The position numbers and the translations under genes were made by a program. Under the pieces are notes generated by a model. That model made no database searches. It saw nothing but the letters and a program-made list of their open reading frames with translations, and was not told the DNA's origin. DNA of 64,000 nucleotides from Protoeuglena noctilucae (Eukaryota): the NCBI GenBank assembly GCA_958009085.1, contig OY253675.1, positions 992,001 to 1,056,000 on the forward strand. The letters run 5' to 3'. The number at the start of each line of letters is the position of its first letter. Positions within the stretch are counted from its first letter, which is position 1. This document shows, in pieces, positions 7,160-49,462 of the stretch.

Positions 7160-8138
7160 AGGCGCTAAGCAGTTTTGCAGACGTATATCTCCATCAGCTT
7201 TGCCTAGTCTGTCTTTTCGACGAATCGGACGCCGTAATGTTTGGCACTGTTATTGTCGGCATTCAACGACATGTGTGAGCAAGACAAGGCCGTTGCAACA
7301 CAGACGGCCACGCCAGAGTCTAGCAGAGCGCCAGCAAGCATGGGTGTGGGGCCTTGGCAGAAAGGCGCGGTGGGTCGTGAGTGCCACGAGCCAGCGCGCA
7401 GCATTGTTTGGCCATATGAACGCCATAAAGTCCGGGCCCGGGCATGCATTGAGTGGTAGGGCACTCCAGGCTTGGGAAGGAAAGGCACAAGTCCCGCTGC
7501 TACAGGAACGCACCGTGAAGCGTTAGAGAGCAAGGGTAGCCAAACGGCAGCGGGGACATGTCCGGCGATGCAAGTCCGCCCTCGCAAGGGCGGACGGCCC
7601 GCAAGTCCGGCCCAGGGCCAATCGCCCGGGCGAAAAGGATCTACGTGCATGCACTACCACAGTGGGTACGTTTACGGGGCAAGACGGGCCAGGAAGGTTA
7701 GCCCCGGGGCGCTGGGAGACGGACAGGCGCCCTTTGCACAACGGGCGCCTGCCCTGCGCCATGGTACCCGGTCTGTTGTCATTCTGAGCCACGACCCCAG
7801 GAAAGAGAAAAACAGGGCTGCGACGCCGGGACCAGAAAGGTTGCTGTGCAGAGTCCCGACGTCTATGCCGTCCATCAAACCCCCAACTAGCGCTGCATTC
7901 GCCAAAAAAGACCCCTTGGGTCGAAAAGAGCCGCACGCACGGTGCACGCATGTCGGGGGTGAAGCGTGCCGCACGCCGCGATATACAAAAACCTCCTGAC
8001 ACTTCCCGAAACCTCCTACGTCCGCAATAAAAGATATAGCCCGTCTCAGGGCAGGGAGTGCACCTGACAAAGCACCCTGCATGGCTCTGCGCCAACCCTC
8101 GCCATACGCCATCCAAGCTGCACCAGGCACGCACCCAT

Positions 8139-11100
8139 CTAATGCGGTAGACGAAGCGCCGCCCCGGGATGCACCGGCCCCGCGCCGTGTCTGCCAGGCG
8201 CAGAGGCGGGGGCTGCCGACCCCCCCATCCCCCCCATCGCCCCCATCGCCTGGCCCTGCAAGACACGGCCCCCAGCCTGGCCGGCAGTCTGGCTCTGGTA
8301 GGCCGCGGCGGACATGGCGGCGGGGCTGACCGCGTAGTAGACGCCCTGCGACCCTGGCGCTTGGTGCTGCGCCTGTCGCAGTAAGGCCAGCTGCTGGGCC
8401 TGGGCCATCTGCGCCTGGGACCACTGCAGCTGAGCCATCTGGGCTTGCGCCACCTGAGCTTGGGCCATCTGGGCCTGGGCCACCTGGGCCTGAGTCATGG
8501 GGCGGGACCCCTGAGTCAGGTGTGCCTGCGCCTGCGCCAGGGCCTGCATCTGCTGTAACTGCTGCACCTGGTGGGCCTGGGCCATGTGCATCTGCATCGC
8601 CAGCGCAGGGCTGACGCCCACAGAAGCACCGCCCATCGCACCGCCCATCGTCGCGACAGGCACCGCCACACCAGCGCCCGCGTGCCAACCCATCCCCCCT
8701 CCCACGCTTCCCATCGCAAAGCCCGCCACCGGCGCGCCCCCGTACGCCACAGCCACGGCCCCCGAGTTGGGCGCCATATGCATGGGCTGCATGCCGCCAG
8801 ACACCACCGCGTACCCCCCAGGCCCCACAGCCCCGCCCTGCTCCCCCTTTGCCCCACGCTCTGAGATTCGTTTGGGCGCGCCAGCTCCCGACGCCACCGC
8901 ACCCGTCGCACCTGCCTCAGACCCCCTCCCAGCCACGCCTGTGTCGCCTCCCTCAGGCCCACCCTCCTCGTCAGCCCCACCCCCGTCCGCCCAGGCATGC
9001 ACCGACGCAAGGACACCTCCGCTTACATTCGCCTTTGCCCCGTCCGACAGGGGTGGCGTGGGCGGCGCGGGTGGCGCGGGTGGTGGTGGGCCGTGGGGTG
9101 GTGGCGGTGGGGAGGGCGGAGGAGCGGGCGCAGCGAAGGGGGTGCCGTGGAACTGGGCCGCGAGAGCAGAGGACACGCGCCCGGGAGGCCCTCCAATCAT
9201 GGCGGGGGGCACTCCCAGCGAGTGGCTGCGCTGCAGGCCCTGGCTGAGGCGGGGGCCGGGGGCCGGTGCGGGGCCTCTCGCCCCGTCTGCTGTGCCGGGC
9301 GGGGGCGGCATAGGCGGGGGCGGCGGGAGGCTTCGCAGTGCGCTGCCGACGGGCGCAGGTGCGGCCGCGGCGTTGGCGAGGGCCATCTGCGCGACGGCCG
9401 GGGCGAGGGAGTTGGGGGTGACGGTGCGTGAGGCGAGGACGGCGCTGAGGGGGCGGGTGAAGCCGTCGTGGTTGCCTCGGAAGGAGGAAGAAGACGCCAG
9501 GGACGATCCCCCTCCCCGGGCCCCGAAGGAGTTGGCGCCAGAGTAGGTGGTGCCAGAGTATGTGGTGCCAGAGTAGGTGCCAGTGCCAGAGTAGGTGCCG
9601 GGGAATCCCAGGTGGTGCGGGGACCGAGCGAAGGAGCTCGAGGCGGAGGGTAGCGTCGACAGAGTGGACCCGGGAGTGCTGGGGCGGCCCCCCGAGGGCG
9701 TGGTGGCCCAACTGGCCTGGCTGGGCAGGCTGGGGATGCTGGGGATGCTGGTTTGAGAAGGGATGCTGGGGTGTCGGGGGAGCGAGCCGACGGTGGAGAG
9801 GGTGCGGGAGGTGGGGGAGGGGCACTTGGCGGGGGAAGTGGCCTCGAGGAGGTCGCGCACGGCCGCCTGGGGGGGTGGCAGAGGGGGTGGATGGTGGGTG
9901 GGTGACATGGGGGGAGTGAGAGGGGGGCATGGGGAGCGTGAACAGATTGACAACGAACAGCTTGGGTGCCGTGCGACAATCAACCGCCCTTGCACGCCCA
10001 ACCCTCAACCCACCTCTGCTCACCACGACTGCCCTCATCCACCCCCACCCCAGCACTGCTCACCACGAGTGGCCTTGCCGCCTCGTCGATGTCTTCCCCG
10101 GGGTTGGCCGCCTTGCGGTGCAGCAGCGCCGACAGATGCGCCCGCACCGCCCCCACGACCCCCACCACCCCCGTCGTGGCGTTGAACAACACCAAGTCCC
10201 CCAGCACCGCCAGGCAAACCTCGGACCGGCCTGGGACGGGGCGCACGGTCCCCCCGAACAGCACCAGGGCCCAGTCAGGGACCACCGTCAGCGTGACCAG
10301 GAAAATGCCGCCCCCGCCCTTGCGGACCTTCTGGGGGAATGGGAAGAGGTGAGGGAGAGGTCAGGGAGGGTGTGAGGGTGGGGAGAGAGAGTTGAGGAGA
10401 TGGGGAGAGGTGAGGGAGGGTGTGAGGGTGGGGAGAGAGAGTTGAGGAGATGGGGAGAGGTGACGAAGGGAGAGGAGAATAGAGAGGGTGGGGAGAGAAG
10501 GGCCGAGCTGGGAGCGGTGGTGGGTGTTGTCTCTTTCTAAGAGAGAACAGACAGTTAGCCACCAGGTGCACAGTTACTATGCTGCTTTGAGTACTGGTAA
10601 CGTTGCGTTGCTCTCTCCCCATCCAAACACCCACAGACAGTCAGCCACCCCATCATGGCCGCGTGCCATTGCCAATCGCAGCCCCCAACACTCGCCTGGG
10701 AGTAGGCGGCGAAGTTGGCCTGGATGTCGTCTCTGTGGGCGTTGAGGACCGAGTTGGGGTGCAGCTCCACGCGGCCGTCGTCCTGCGATGGCATGGGAAC
10801 CGAGCGGAGATGGGCATGATGGGCCGGGGTGGTGAGGGTGCCGGGAATGACATGGGCGGGAGTGACTGTTTGTGTTATGCTGTGTAGGCTATCCCGATCA
10901 TCGGGATATTGGCAACAGCTCGTGTGGCACGTGTGTTGGTCACAGCCACCATAGGCACTACCATAGCTGCCATCATAGGTCCGTCCCTACACCTCCACCC
11001 ATCGTCATCGTCGCACGCCTCGCCTTGGTGCGGAATGCGGCCCTGTTCCTCTTCTGCTCGACGATGGCCACGTTGGGGTACATCCCCGCGCATATGACCG

Positions 11101-43239: not shown

Positions 43240-43762
43240 GCAGTTGGTGCTGCGAGCTGCAATCTGGCCAATGCGACGGCGTCGGCTGTTACTGCTGCGA
43301 TCCACGACCTACTGCCGGTGCACAGCGCTCGGCCAGCTGCTTCAAGTTGTTGGGGAACGAAGCGTCTGGCACACTGCAGGACTTGCGTATCGCTGATGGT
43401 GCCCTGCGTCTTCACTATCTGAACACGTGCAAGGCCAGGCCGTGCATCTCTAATCACGCCATCGGGCTGTGCAGCGCAGGGGAGCGGACAACGCGCCTAT
43501 CAGCATGCGCAGCTGCAGGCCAACATGCAGTGGCAGCGGCCCAATCCAACCCATCACTAGAGCTATGCATGCAGCGCACTCTCTCTCTCCTTACGCCATG
43601 TGGTCAGAACATCTCGGCTTGGACCGCCTCGGAGCTTCGCGCTGGGTCTTGCGCCTCACCAGCCTGTGAGCAGACTCGTGCGAGTGCCCGTCCAAGCTTG
43701 GCGTTAGCTCACTGCAGCCAGCTGTAGGCACCCATTGTGAAATGTCTGCTCACCTCTTTCCC

Positions 43763-46725
43763 TTAGAAGCCCCTTCCGCCCTCCTCGTCCCCGGACTCCC
43801 CCTCCTCATCGCCGCTGCTGCCGTTACCGTCGTCCTCGTCCTCGTCCTCGCTGACGCTGTCGCCGTCGGAACCGCCGTCGCCATCGCCCTCCTCCGCATC
43901 ATCAGGGAACTCCTCCTCCGCCTCCTCGTCGAGCCTCAGCTCCTCGTTTAGGCTGATGACCATGGCCAGGTCCTCATCGTCCCCCATCTCCATCTCCTCG
44001 CCCAGCGCCTCCACCTCGTCCCACTCCAGGTCGGTGTCCGTCTTCGCCGCCCCCACCGCCTGCGCCACCCCGGCGGCCTGCTTCCCACCGTACTGCCGGA
44101 GGTGGGCTGGCAGGATGAAGTAGACCATCTTGCTGTCGTTGTTGAACTCGAAGTTGCTCTTGCACGCAGCGACCTTGGCCAGGTGCGCCCGGAACTCCGC
44201 ATCCGACAGGTCCTTCTTCATGTAGTTGCACTCCTTGCAGCACGTCTGGACGTTGCCCTTGACGTAGCCGAGCTTGTTGTCGATCCGGTCCACCCCGTTG
44301 GTGCCGGTCTTGAGCTTGCAGTACACGCACGGCTTGGCACGGAGGTCGTTGAACTTGTCCTCGGTGAGCGCGAAAGCGAGGCCCTTCTTCTTAGCCCTCC
44401 TGCGGTAGCTCGCGAAGCTGGAGGCCGACATCGGGGCCGGCCACGCCGACGAGTGGCTGCCGGCTCCCGTGATGTGCTTGGCGCGGCAGATGAAGTTGGA
44501 CGGGTCGCACTGGCCCTTCATGTTGTTGCAGATCTTGCAGGCGGGCGCCACGTTCCCCCTCACGTAGCCCTGGCCGACCACCATGCAATCGATGCCGTTG
44601 GAGGCCCCGGGCTTCGACTCCTCGCCGCAATATACGCAGGGCAGGGCCATGAGCTCCATCGCCGCCTGGGTGTCTTCCAGGAACGTGATGACGCCGCGCT
44701 TCCGACGGTGGAAGACCATGACGGCAAGCTTACTCGATGCATGATTGGCGTAGTAAAGCTTCTTGTAGTAGCCCGGGTGCTCGGCACGGAACTTGGCCTG
44801 CAGCTCACTGTAGTAGCGCAGGAAGCCCTCCAGGTCCTTCTCCTTGTACCTGGCGCGGAGCTCGCGACGATACTTCGCCACGGCCTCCCTCGTTCTGCAG
44901 TACCACGCTCGCTTCGCCTTCCGCCTCTCCTCCCGCTTGTCGTAGTGCATGCCCTTGTCCCGGCACGTGAGGCAGTAGCTCGCGGCGTCCTTGCGCTGGC
45001 CCAGCTGCGTGGCGATGCTGCCTGCATTGCCGCGGTCCACGAACTGGTCCGGGGGCTGGGGGTCACGCACCGTGCACTTGAAGTATCCGCATACCACGGT
45101 GCCCTCAGGCGCCGTCTCCTGCGCGTGATGGGCACGTGATGCTGCTGCGCAATGCTGGAGCTTGTTGCTAGCACTTAGCGTCCATCAGCAATCCTGCGTC
45201 ATCCACACAAGAACGTTGCCGATACAATGCCGATACATTCATTGCATGCAACACATGCATTACCGATACATTCAGTGATCAAGTGACAAAGACTGAGGGC
45301 AGCGGTCACCTTCATCGCCTGGATCTCGCTCTCCCGGGTTTTGATGTACGTGCGCTCCTGCTCGTAATGGAGCTCGCATCGTTTCCCTCCCTCCCGCTTC
45401 CGGTTCTGGCAGTTCTTCCGGCTGCACAGCCCCGGGTCCTTGCCCTGATACCTCGCCTTGTCCTTGGCCTCGCGGTCGTCCCGGCAACCATTGCACCACT
45501 TCGAGAGGCCCTTGCCCTTGCGCCTCACAAACTCGGCCGGGTCCTTGATGGCGTCGCACTTCTCGCAGCGCTTCTTCCCCTCGCGCTCCGCGGCTGCGTC
45601 CTTGGCCTCGCGCGCCCCCTTCAGCCATTGCTCCATGATCTCCTCCATCTCCACGAGCTCCTTGATGATGGGCTTCTGCTTGTCATCGAGCCCGTTGGCC
45701 TTTAGGCCCCTCTTATGTCGCTGATACCAAAGCCACTCCTCGCTCGTCTTGGCCATGCCCCCACCAGACTTGAACTCTTTCTTGAGTTGCGCCACGTGTT
45801 TCTTGGCGTCCTTGTGCCACTGGTCCTTTTGAACATTTTCCCAGGTCCACCCCGGCAAGGACTTGAACATGTCCACGACCTCCTTGGTAAGGTTGCCGTC
45901 CCTGTAATGCCTGCGGTAGTTGCTGCACATCTTTCCCACTTTCGTCAAGTCCCCCACGTCTTGGTTCGCTTTAGGCAGGCGCTTGTACTTCTTCCAACAC
46001 TCTTCGCATGCGTCGACCAGTTTCCGCGCAGCCCTGAGCATTGCCGGGTTCGTGGGCCCCGCCCTGCAGGCATGAATCAGGCAACTCGTGCAGTGAGGTG
46101 TGGCCGCAGACTACCTCAGTCATCCATCTGCTACCCCTGGAGGGTTGCTCACTTGAACTGCGGTTCCTCGTCCCCATCCCTTTCTGCCCGCTTCCTCTTG
46201 GCGCCCTGCCCACGCCCTCGTCCCGCACCGGCCTTCCTCCCCCGCTTTGAGCTCCCGGAGCAGCCACCAGCACCCCTGCGGCACACGACAGATCATTATC
46301 CGCATAAAGACAGATCCCAATTCTCAGCCACATCCACCCTGCGCCTACGCTGCATGTGCTCACCCCGACCCTGCAGCCCTGCTCGGCGAGTCGCCGGGGG
46401 CTTGTCCTGAGGGGGCCGGCGAGGTTCCGTCCACCACATCCATGCGCAGGTCCTCTCTGGGGGCGAAAAAACTCAAAGAGAGCTTGGAAATCGGTTGGAG
46501 CACTGTAGCTGCAGTCGGAAAGCCGCGCCCATCTCACCCTTCGCCGGACTCTCCACCAGTCATGTCCTCATCTCGTCCCTCCATTCCCCCGCCCGGAGAG
46601 CGAGAGGAAGGGTCGGCGCTGGGCGCCAGACCCGCAGGCGCTTCCTGCAGCACTTCCTCCGCGAGCGCCTCGTCCGGGCCTTCGTCGTCGCTCATCTCTA
46701 TCACACCACCATTCCCACGCGGCAT
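43763..46725 (-). CDS. Five-exon, about 837-aa protein: acidic N-terminus and NLS, two helicase-associated (HA)-like repeats, several Zn-binding Cys clusters, two tandem HNH-like modules, acidic tail
   Basis: Exons 46725-46538, 46456-46364, 46275-46153, 46063-45310 and 45118-43763 join in phase at GT-AG sites. Motifs: YRRHYRDGNLTKEVVDMFKSLPGWTW; PCVYC..NGIDC..GYVRGNVAPACKICNNMK; PCVYC..NGVDRIDNKLGYVKGNVQTCCKECNYMK. Confidence 0.82.
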
Positions 46726-47457
46726 CCTGCCTCGGACGGCCCCGACGTGGGCCCTGCGTGAAGAACATGGTGGTGCATTTGGACAAGGCACTTCGTCCAG
46801 CAAAGGCGATGGCGCCCTCCGCACGCCCTCTGAGCGGTTTCCTTGCCGACATACACGCGCGTTAAAGCCGGCACTTCGGACCAACAGCACCGCGTGCGCA
46901 CGGCGCGGCCCAGCGCAGACAGCGCCACACCACTCGCTCCCCGGCTCGCCTTCCGACGCACGCCTCGGCGCGCACGGTATGCCTATTGCGCGACGAGGTC
47001 CTCGTCAAGCCGGCCGCGACGGGAGGGGTCCGTAGCTCCTCTGTGCGCCTACGTCCGGGGGGTAGTTCTCCAAGGAGCTCCCCAAGGCTCACTAACTTGC
47101 CGATCGCCACGCCAACTAGCTACCGCTGCTCACGGAAGTGCCTGTCGCCACGCAGCGGCACGGCCGACGACCGCGCTCCGCGCTCGGTCTGACTGGGTTA
47201 ACCTCCGTCCGACTTTTCCATGAAGCCGACAGCACGCTCCCTCTCCCCTCACCCACGAGCAGAGACATTCCCGTGTCAGGCGCCTGCGTCCGAGAGGCGT
47301 CTTCCCGCCAGCTTCCAGCTTCCAAAAGGTGCGCATGTCTGCGATGCCATATCCACCGCGGCGTGCGTCGCCCGGCCCGATATCCACTCATACTCACACA
47401 TCGAACCGGCCTCTCTCGCAAGGACTCCCGTATTGTCCTACACAACGCCCCTGGAGG

Positions 47458-49462
47458 ATGGCAGACGCAGGTGCGGCATGCCCAGCTAACAATGCGCGTT
47501 CCTCGGCACCTTGCGATGGCACGTCTTGACACGGGACGCTTTTTAACAACCCCAGGGTACACGTGGGACGACCTGCCCAGGGAACTCCATTGCAAGGTCC
47601 TGCGGCTGCTGCCCCTGGAATACGCGACGCTCGCCCGGTGGGCCTCGAAGATGCGCGGAGAGGTGGACGAGATATGGGGGAGCTGGGGCCTCCGCGCCGC
47701 GCCCTTTGATGGCACCAATCGGGTTCCGCCCGGGGGAAACCTCGCGGAGGAGTTCACATTGAGCGGCCCGCTGCACGTGTGGCTGCACAACGGCTCCCAC
47801 GCGCACCACCTGGCGAGCGTCGGCAAGCCGTGGCTAGCCGTCATGGTCTCCGAGCCCGGGCTGGCGATGAACGAGCCATGGGACGAGGTCCCGTTCGCAT
47901 TTGCGCATCCCCCGGACACGCACGTGCACTCGCCGCTGTCGCTGGCGGTGCAGGCGAAGGTGCCGGTGGGGTACGACATGGTAAGGTTCATCCGGTGGGG
48001 ATACGCGCTGGGGGACGAGGAGATGGCGCGGATGGTGCGCGCGGCGGTGGCGATGGGGGTGGACATCAACCGCACCCTGCACTCGACGGGCCCGCTGCTG
48101 GGCTCCTGCGCGGGTCGGGGCCTCGTCCGGGCGGTGAGGGCGTGCCTGAAGGCGGGGGCGGAGGTGGACGCCCGCAGCACCTGGAATGGATCGATGGCGC
48201 TTTTCTTCGCCGCGCACGGGGGCCACGAGGCGGTGGTGGACGTGCTGCTGGAGGTCGGGGCGTCGGCGGAGTTGGCGGTCACGACGGGGGACCCCACGCT
48301 GGTGGCCGTGTGCACGGGCAGCCCCACGCCCGCCATCGTGCGGCGGCTGGTCGAGGAGGGGGCGCATCTGAGCGGGGGGGCGCTCCTGTCCGCGTCGATG
48401 TTCGGCAACGTGCCGGTCCTCGAGGCCCTGGTGGAGCTGGGGCTGGACGTGCGCGCGTCGTTCGACGGGACCACGGCGATGCACGTCGCGAAGAACAGGG
48501 ACGTGGCGCAGTGGCTGGCGGCGCGGGGCGCGAGCGTGCAGGGGGACGGCGGGGGCCCGTCGCCCCTGCAGCGCGCATGCAGCACCGGCAGGCTCGACGT
48601 CGTGTACGCGCTGATCAACCTGGGCGCGGACGTCCACTGGCGCGACGGCGAGGGCCGGACGGCCGCGCACGCTGCCGTGTGCGCGGCGAACCTGGACAGC
48701 GAGCCGAGCGACCCCGCTGTCTTCGGCCTCCCCCTGGACATGCTGGATGTGCTGATCATGGCGGGGGCGGACGTCACCGTGGCGGACAACCACGGGGTCA
48801 CGCCGCTGCACCTGACCCGGTGCGTGGAGTGCGTGGACCTGCTGGTGGAGACGGGGGTGCCCGTGGACGCGCAGGACACGGCAGGGCGGACGCCCCTCTT
48901 CTCCGCGTGCGTGCCCATAGAGGGCTTGCCCCAAGCGAAGCCGGACCCCAAGGCGTTCGATATGCTGGTTTTCTGCGGGGCGGATACCCGCGTTACGGTG
49001 GGCGGGGCTAACCTGGTGCACCAGGTCACCAAGTACTGTGGTCACTACCACATCTCGCATCGCGAGAGGGTTGAGTGCGGCTGGCCGAGAGCGCTGTCTA
49101 CGGCGCTTGAGGCGCTGGATGGCGCCCGGGGGAACGACGTGAACAGCAAGGACGGCGAGGGCTCGACGGCACTGCATCACGCCGCGCAGGGCATCTGGGT
49201 GGAGGGGATTCGCATCCTGCTGGCTGCCAGCGCGTCGCCGCACGTGTCGAACGCGGACGGCAACACCCCTCTGCACTTGGCGGCTGTGAAGGACCAGCCG
49301 TCCCTCAAGGACCCCTACCTCAAGCAGCTCATCTCCGCGTGCGTGGAGGCGCTGCTCAGGGCGGGCGCGGACCCGGCGGCAGTCAACAATGCGGGGGCGC
49401 AGGCGCTGTCGGAGGGCATGCAGGCCCAGTTTGCCGCCAAGCTCGCGACCGCGGCTCCCTGA
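47458..49462 (+). CDS. F-box-like plus ankyrin-repeat protein (short first exon MADA, intron 47471-47555, then a single 1.9-kb exon)
   Basis: WDDLPRELHCKVLRLLP F-box-like start; many ankyrin motifs (GTTAMHVA, SPLQRAC, GRTAAHAA, GVTPLHL, GRTPLFSA, GSTALHHAA, GNTPLHLAA). Confidence 0.85.

Follow-up and report, generated by a model that had tools for sequence, protein, structure and literature searches.

Positions 43763 to 46725 of a stretch of Protoeuglena noctilucae DNA (assembly GCA_958009085.1, contig OY253675.1, positions 992,001 to 1,056,000; 64,000 nucleotides, hereafter the window) raise the question of what a gene with the look of a viral nuclease is and how it came to lie there. A sequence-only reading of this DNA had joined five exons in phase into a protein of about 837 amino acids with HA-like repeats, zinc fingers and two tandem HNH-like modules, and had suggested either a viral or mobile gene domesticated by its host or the coding core of an undescribed mobile element. 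Following the analyses described here, we identify the gene as a new eukaryotic, intron-bearing member of a known, barely studied nuclease family, and not as a new kind of system. The five minus-strand exons (46725..43763) are spliced in frame into 2514 nt, that is 837 codons followed by TAA with no internal stop, and joints were found in RNA at all four coding introns, which bears out the exon structure that had been proposed.

PacI-type modules and their relatives

The C-terminal half of the protein consists of tandem PacI-type His-Me finger (HNH) modules, belonging to group 20 of these nucleases. Word-indexed protein searches returned almost only the window's own open reading frames (ORFs), and the family emerged solely by a full HMMER search with exon 5 against 1.84 billion representative proteins. 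At E<=1e-3 this search gave 19,692 proteins, of which 2,718 reached E<=1e-10, and many of the relatives cover exon-5 residues ~47-320 in one stretch. Among the PHROGs, phrog_1035, named 'endonuclease VII', was matched over two stretches (E 2.3e-25), together with the further HNH families phrog_3322 (E 2.8e-18) and phrog_3118 (E 1.3e-16). No Pfam family reached its cut-off on the modules (HNH_5 at E 0.034, HNH at E 0.073), and NCBIfam gave no match for exon 5. His-Me finger group 20, as drawn up with PacI at its centre in passages of Jablonska et al. 2017 (PMC5714182), has no Pfam model and is counted there with 78 giant-virus, 4 bacterial, 0 archaeal and 6 eukaryotic members. The same passages describe a helix-turn-helix-like domain ahead of the finger and a loop Tyr that substitutes for the catalytic His, which is absent from the group; a role of the viral members as restriction enzymes is the authors' speculation.

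An alignment of 50 relatives of exon 5 (A1) revealed a common plan. A zinc ribbon with the pattern CxxC...F...CxxCR comes first, a helical region next, and after it two modules that each read CxYC...NG(I/V)DRxD..GY...N...CC..CN.MK. When the A1 profile was compared with PDB sequences, the best match was PacI (3LDY, E 4.5e-6), on module 2, and the next was the Geobacter (Gme) HNH nicking endonuclease (4h9d, E 1.9e-5), on module 1. An AlphaFold model of exon-5 residues 1-340, computed on A1, reached a pLDDT of 87.7 and a pTM of 0.71 and contains two strand-strand-helix (beta-beta-alpha) units, at residues 175-201 and 275-301 in exon-5 numbering. PacI was the sole Foldseek match at E<=1e-3 (8.5e-4, probability 1.00, 104 columns), and VIA-align also placed it on top (Z 7.7, rmsd 5.3, 106 aligned), followed by Cas9 HNH domains with Z 6.6 to 5. 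The check by AlphaFold and Foldseek that had been proposed for the locus thus predicts an HNH fold, with PacI as its closest structure.

From A1, the PacI profile match and the model, module 1 was placed at 44468..44695 and module 2 at 44165..44416, both on the minus strand; the two are homologous to each other (36% identity over 73 aa, E 6e-13). Module 2 keeps every residue of the motif (C650, C653, D663, R664, D666, Y671, N675, C680, C683, N684 and K687). Module 1 keeps C547, C550, D563, Y571, N575, C580, C583, N584 and K587, and has C564 in place of the Arg and V566 in place of the second Asp. The four Cys columns of each module (C547/550/580/583 and C650/653/680/683) are invariant or nearly so in A1, and a zinc site is predicted at each. 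The pairs D563/N584 and D663/N684 align to the D and N of 'VDR...CN' in PacI. Y571 and Y671 sit between the predicted strands of their modules, and their column in A1 is invariant in module 1 and at least 90% Tyr in module 2. For PacI itself, passages of Pingoud et al. 2014 (PMC4081073) and of Taylor and Stoddard 2012 (PMC3384342) describe a homodimer with one module per subunit, in which one Asp and one Asn are the metal ligands, a Tyr is taken as the general base and structural zinc sits in Cys4 sites.

The sequence-only reading had noted 'DC' in the first copy and 'DR' in the second, correctly so: these are D563-C564 and D663-R664, and the RNA contigs described below are identical there. 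These contigs carry no letter differing from the genome, so the 'DC' of module 1 is not an assembly slip. It had also taken the His of the usual 'DH' motif to be replaced, and this part has to be corrected. In the 150 best relatives, in which modules were counted with a loose regular expression, 289 modules comprise 265 with DR, four with DC and none with DH; the His-less state is a hallmark of the PacI branch, in which Tyr takes the role of His, and not a decay of the 'DH' motif. Judged by its two substitutions, module 1 may nevertheless be inactive.

The tandem form is the norm of the family: two modules were counted in 139 of the 150 best relatives, one in eight, three in one and none in two. 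A Pfam scan of 76 long relatives left 68 without a family at E<=1e-3, while one touches PF01844 under the cut-off of that family. The relative P0045 has an HA domain above the Pfam cut-off (E 2.6e-8); giant-virus contigs, of which two bear GVMAG names, carry its own relatives, and the HA domain was confirmed in two of these relatives (E 1.2e-9 and 3.7e-10). The combination of HA domain, zinc ribbon and tandem modules therefore recurs in one giant-virus lineage and is not unique to the window gene, which, with the assignment of the modules to the PacI-like group 20, answers the earlier remark that the domain combination was no named family. In P0051 and P0063 two modules are joined to an EsV-1-7 Cys-rich motif (E 9.5e-18) or an SBP zinc domain (E 9.1e-8), and DUF5763 is found in others. 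Such varied extra domains as EsV-1-7 and SBP suggest that members of this family exchange the N-terminal DNA-binding part freely.

Where the relatives can be labelled, they are overwhelmingly viral. The nearest 30 Atlas clusters are all viral, and their members of known phylum are Nucleocytoviricota only. Viral contigs were searched with single-protein queries; a scan with the window core gave four loci at 30-35% identity over ~250-285 aa, one of them on a 1.26-Mb contig. We scanned 81 ORFs from eight viral loci (L007, L008, L011, L012, L014, L015, L016 and L017), which have 20-42% GC and contain genes for capsid, VLTF3, ribonucleotide reductase and other giant-virus genes. In seven of the eight the tandem nuclease gene adjoins the major capsid gene, the eighth (L017) being a contig of 4.4 kb. 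The two genes lie tail-to-tail, 89 nt apart, in L014 and are convergent in L007, L008, L011 and L012; in L015 and L016 the nuclease gene is downstream of the capsid gene on the same strand. The viral nuclease gene is one uninterrupted ORF in all eight loci. Homing endonucleases are discussed as weapons between competing giant viruses in passages of PMC5871332, and PMC13620141 names HNH endonucleases as one of the mobile elements that are common in the genomic islands of giant viruses.

Two further observations were made in these viral loci. In L016, just downstream of the capsid gene, the tandem-module gene (7317-9605, plus strand) carries a fused Druantia DruA domain (PF14236, E 2.1e-27). Ankyrin genes are found near the nuclease genes of L014 and L016.

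Gene structure, protein layout and host setting

The coding exons, all on the minus strand, are 46725..46538, 46456..46364, 46275..46153, 46063..45310 and 45118..43763, and the four introns between them are all GT..AG. The RNA evidence comes from three marine samples of a single study (metatranscriptome runs X1, X3 and X4), with the DNA run X5 for comparison. The RNA contigs, 3035, 2546 and 1822 nt long, are joined where exon borders had been predicted. Intron 4 (45119..45309, 191 nt; joint 45118/45310) and intron 3 (46064..46152, 89 nt; joint 46063/46153) are removed in all three RNA runs. The joint of intron 2 (46276..46363, 88 nt; 46275/46364) is solid in X1 and has only 26 letters on one side in X3, and that of intron 1 (46457..46537, 81 nt; 46456/46538) was seen in one of the three runs, X1. 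A further GT..AG intron of 90 nt (43664..43753) begins 9 nt past the stop codon, in the 3' untranslated region (UTR); its joint was present in all three RNA runs and absent from X5. In X5 there were no coding joints and the locus lay in one unspliced contig, and two further contigs touched only ~20-nt pieces of the gene, two of these pieces in the region of the acidic tail. The gene is thus spliced and expressed, and the junction check that had been proposed supports all four coding joints.

The 5' end probably has one more intron. The X1 and X3 contigs have loose ends at 46755, beyond which they extend by 141 and 158 letters, and 30 of those letters recur from 46952 in the window. Since they resume at about 46950, we place there a 5'UTR intron of 196 nt (46754..46949) of the type GC..AG, whose borders on the minus strand are GAAG/GCGAGC and CGCAG/GG (the slash marking the border), preceded by a first exon of approximate extent 46950..47090. 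The 171 nt of reconstructed 5'UTR contain no ATG, so the ATG at 46725 stands.

Sampled words of the same 3.3-kb stretch, 76% of which is exon, were found at 64-74% in four marine metatranscriptome runs of one study and at 100% in four runs labelled organism A, whose kind is unrecorded. The RNA runs X9-X12 contain next to none of the words of the locus, which has no bearing on expression in culture.

The protein is laid out as had been described from the sequence, with acidic ends, a basic stretch resembling a nuclear localisation signal, Cys clusters and two modules. The exon 46538..46753 holds the remainder of the 5'UTR and coding exon 1, which encodes the acidic, Gly/Ser-rich N-terminus (21% D/E over aa 1-100), and is followed by coding exon 2 (46364..46456). 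Coding exon 3 (46153..46275) includes the basic KRGRK...KRKR stretch (about aa 104-125, 46182-46247), which, judged from its sequence, is likely to target the protein to the nucleus. In coding exon 4 (45310..46063) the two HA-like repeats come first (aa 143-280), then zinc ribbon A (CEKC..WCNGC, aa 301-328, 45484-45567) and the Cys3His cluster B (CSRKNC..C.LH, aa 348-368, 45364-45426). Coding exon 5, with its stop codon (TAA, 43765-43763) and 9 nt of 3'UTR, spans 43754..45118. It opens with zinc ribbon C (CGYFKC..CLTC, aa 396-438, 44963..45091), which in A1 is the conserved N-terminal ribbon of the family and has a weak profile alignment with the N-terminal zinc motif of PacI. The long helical region (44696..44971), also conserved in the family, has helices at 50-141 in the model with pLDDT 84-97. 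The two modules follow, and then an acidic tail (aa 746-837, 43766..44041) in which D and E make up 47%. All these features are on the minus strand.

For the two HA-like helical repeats (repeat 1 at 45835-46041, repeat 2 at 45628-45834, minus strand) that had been claimed, the identity as HA is weakly supported. Repeat 1 scored 13.6 bits against Pfam HA (PF03457; E 0.089), or 16 bits as a 76-aa piece (E 0.016), the gathering cut-off being 28.4; repeat 2 gave no Pfam match. In a protein language-model look-up in the Atlas, which gives a lead only, all best family-bearing matches were HA clusters (0.88-0.89, 176-178 shared features). When hhalign was used to compare this part with the N-terminus that bears HA in the viral P0045 family, the probability was 0.6%, and exon 4 had no detectable homologue besides its own predicted ORF. 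A single-sequence fold of exon 4 was too poor for use (pLDDT 50.5).

The setting of the gene is that of a eukaryotic genome. The window has multi-exon eukaryotic genes and a GC content of 61-72% per 2 kb. We scanned 138 of its 144 ORFs of at least 170 aa against Pfam, the excluded six overlapping the locus itself, and obtained matches to topoisomerase IA, an Rtt106/FACT-like chaperone, a DEAH helicase (HA2), an XRN exonuclease, Helicase_C, ankyrin and aspartate kinase. These 138 ORFs included no viral hallmark gene (capsid, VLTF3, packaging ATPase or PolB). Neither a second copy nor a repeat of the locus was found within the window, and a search for terminal inverted or direct repeats gave only short flank matches at chance level (75-94%; the longest 29 nt at 75-76%). 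GC at third codon positions (GC3) is 0.855 in the gene and 0.91 in its core, against 0.60-0.85 in neighbouring coding pieces, and synonymous choices match those of the neighbours (e.g. AAG 0.91 versus 0.89). The introns have 51-58% GC. The lower overall GC of the locus is due to first and second codon positions, the protein being rich in Lys, Asn and Tyr.

Beside the gene, at 47120-49459 on the plus strand, lies a divergent, uninterrupted ankyrin ORF of 780 aa (GC3 0.92), which starts at most a few hundred bases from the 5' exon of the nuclease gene. Within intron 4, a direct repeat of 23 nt (83%) overlaps a near-palindrome of 19 nt in an AT-richer piece (45222-45277).

Origin and possible function

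A search of 5.8 billion protein clusters returned the gene's own predicted ORF, the 299-aa protein P0005 (45-46% identity) and one protein at 31%, and a scan of metagenome contigs gave no relative above 33% identity. Vertically conserved orthologues, for which a check had been proposed, were thus found in neither. P0005 has a DR in its module 1 and is missing the second Asp, as is window module 1; its last ~35 residues, where module 2 is expected, read as an out-of-frame translation of a module, possibly through a frameshift or an unrecognised intron. P0005 was among the 34 of 181 HMM hits without both modules that were excluded from a FastTree tree of 147 core sequences. In this tree the rows nearest to the window protein by tree path are unlabelled.

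The gene was probably captured by the host from a giant virus. The tree is not decisive here, and we infer the direction of transfer from the distribution of the family, which is overwhelmingly viral. The host-like codon use, the introns, the neighbours and the lack of flanking repeats make the gene look long resident and not freshly inserted, and it has most likely been in the host long enough to receive six spliceosomal introns and host codon usage. Of the two origins suggested by the sequence-only reading, a nuclease-type gene of viral affinity with spliceosomal introns and host-like codon usage is therefore the one supported, by GC3 and by spliced RNA.

The other, the core of a mobile element, is not supported by what the window shows. 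That the gene is part of an integrated giant-virus element or of another mobile element might be suggested by its viral relatives, which resemble mobile free-standing nuclease genes beside the capsid gene, and by the adjacent intronless ankyrin ORF, of a kind common in giant viruses. However, the composition is host-like and the neighbours are ordinary eukaryotic genes; the 138 scanned ORFs included no viral hallmark, a paralogue and terminal repeats beyond chance were missing from the window, and in X5 one contig spans the gene while the two others touch only the short pieces already mentioned. We regard this origin as very improbable. A transfer in the opposite direction, with an ancestral eukaryotic gene from which giant viruses acquired the family through hosts like the present one, would accord with the six eukaryotic members of group 20 already counted by 2017 (in the passages of PMC5714182 on this group), with some relatives whose amino-acid make-up is of the GC-rich type and which could be cellular, and with a tree that has no direction. 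Against it stand the overwhelmingly viral labels of the family, the low identity of the four viral-contig relatives to the window protein (30-35%) and the lack of orthologues in 5.8 billion clustered proteins or in metagenome contigs, and it appears unlikely to us.

As to function, we lean towards an active, nuclear, single-chain PacI-type DNA endonuclease with two active sites, a reading for which we infer the nuclease activity, the pseudo-dimer, the location and the role in the host. The basic stretch would bring the protein to the nucleus, where DNA binding and the choice of the site would fall to the long helical region together with the HA-like repeats and all three zinc clusters. Each beta-beta-alpha-metal module would have its Cys4 zinc site, its Asp/Asn metal site and its loop Tyr, and the two modules would occupy both strands, one each, like the two subunits of the PacI homodimer. 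The outcome would be a double-strand break, or a nick if module 1 is weakened by the loss of the Arg and the second Asp. The acidic ends might mask the DNA-binding surface until it is needed. In viruses the tandem gene is abundant and stands beside the capsid gene in the manner of a free-standing homing nuclease, and the host copy would derive from there.

Several points weigh against this picture of an active enzyme of viral descent. Module 1 is without the Arg that is conserved in at least 90% of relatives and without the second Asp, and the geometry of a two-module pseudo-dimer is itself conjectural. The Z of 7.7 given by VIA-align is under that tool's level for a match that is safe alone, and agrees with the sequence result. 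Acidic ends, a basic stretch and DNA-binding modules fit a transcription-factor-like protein too. The whole RNA support is from one study, and there is no orthologue above 46% identity on which purifying selection could be gauged. The window protein is a long branch (1.08) in no well-supported set, so that the tree gives neither donor nor direction, and in the literature we found no biochemistry for any tandem member. Nor did the literature searched yield anything specific on PacI-type modules in tandem or on a nuclear copy in an alga.

Perhaps, then, the protein is a domesticated DNA-binding regulator that does not cut, its modules and ribbons binding DNA and its acidic regions acting as activation or chaperone-like domains, with SMAD MH1 as a precedent. 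The acidic N-terminus, the basic stretch and the tail with 47% D/E all suit such a role, as do the two residues lost from module 1, and passages of PMC5714182 report inactive His-Me fingers recruited as transcription factors. However, the inactive groups published there lack both His and Tyr, whereas both modules of the window protein retain the Asp/Asn ligands of PacI, the loop Tyr and the four Cys, and module 2 retains the complete motif; we give this reading some weight and consider it unlikely. An expressed but functionless relic of a viral insertion, transcribed from open chromatin next to a divergent promoter and drifting to decay, would explain why the gene is restricted to its lineage (best relatives at 46% and 31%, and at most 33% in metagenome contigs), why exon 4 has itself alone as a homologue and why module 1 is degenerate at two positions. 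This is difficult to reconcile with an intact frame of 837 codons over five exons without a stop, with six introns precisely removed, with the retention of all zinc and metal ligands and with a core GC3 of 0.91, equal to or above that of host genes, and a relic is in our opinion improbable. For the active endonuclease that we prefer, one use in the host would be as a restriction factor made from a viral homing nuclease, which would cut the DNA of infecting giant viruses at a conserved site, possibly where the capsid gene ends, the acidic ends restraining it until infection. To this more specific proposal we attach little probability.

Among HNH enzymes the PacI type forms a small and unusual branch, in which a single bacterial enzyme has been studied alongside thousands of giant-virus genes that are uncharacterised. 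An intact copy that is expressed and bears introns in a cellular genome means that members of the family are able to establish themselves in the nucleus of a eukaryote. It also offers a tractable protein for asking if the tandem form cuts both strands as a single chain and which site it recognises. Were the host to use the enzyme against viruses, a selfish gene of viral origin would have become part of eukaryotic immunity; otherwise the gene adds a further case to the well-documented gene flow that links marine protists with giant viruses.

Comparison with known systems

Free-standing homing endonucleases, as treated in passages of PMC5871332, resemble the viral relatives in their position beside an essential capsid gene. 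In contrast, the window copy is beside no plausible target gene and has no sign of mobility.

T4 endonuclease VII has the His in its 'DH' motif and, as a domain-swapped dimer, resolves junctions. The endonuclease VII-like and phage HNH families (phrog_1035, phrog_3322 and phrog_3118) gave the strongest library matches and share with the window protein the Cys4 site as well as a beta-beta-alpha-metal core, but the window family has Arg and Tyr instead of the His of 'DH'.

The giant-virus tandem genes (the P0045 family and those of L007, L008 and L014) are nearer. They have the zinc ribbon, the helical region and two modules in common with the window gene, with 30-35% identity over ~250-285 aa, and one lineage has an N-terminal HA domain as well (E 2.6e-8, 1.2e-9 and 3.7e-10), although this has no detectable similarity to the HA-like part of the window protein (hhalign probability 0.6%). 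The viral genes are AT-rich, uninterrupted and adjacent to the capsid gene, whereas the window gene has host neighbours, introns, a high GC3 and acidic ends.

Among characterised enzymes, PacI (PDB 3LDY/3M7K) is the closest by both profile (E 4.5e-6) and fold. The two share the motif CxxC ... D-R-x-D ... G-Y ... N ... CxxC-N..K, the absence of a catalytic His, the loop Tyr, the Asp/Asn metal ligands and the Cys4 zinc site, as well as a helix-turn-helix-like lead-in and an N-terminal zinc ribbon. However, PacI is a bacterial homodimer of 142 aa with one module per chain, whereas the window gene is eukaryotic and intron-bearing and encodes two modules in a chain of 837 aa. The window protein has Cys for Arg and Val for the second Asp in its module 1, and adds to the plan of PacI three zinc clusters, the HA-like repeats, the long helical region, the acidic ends and the basic stretch.

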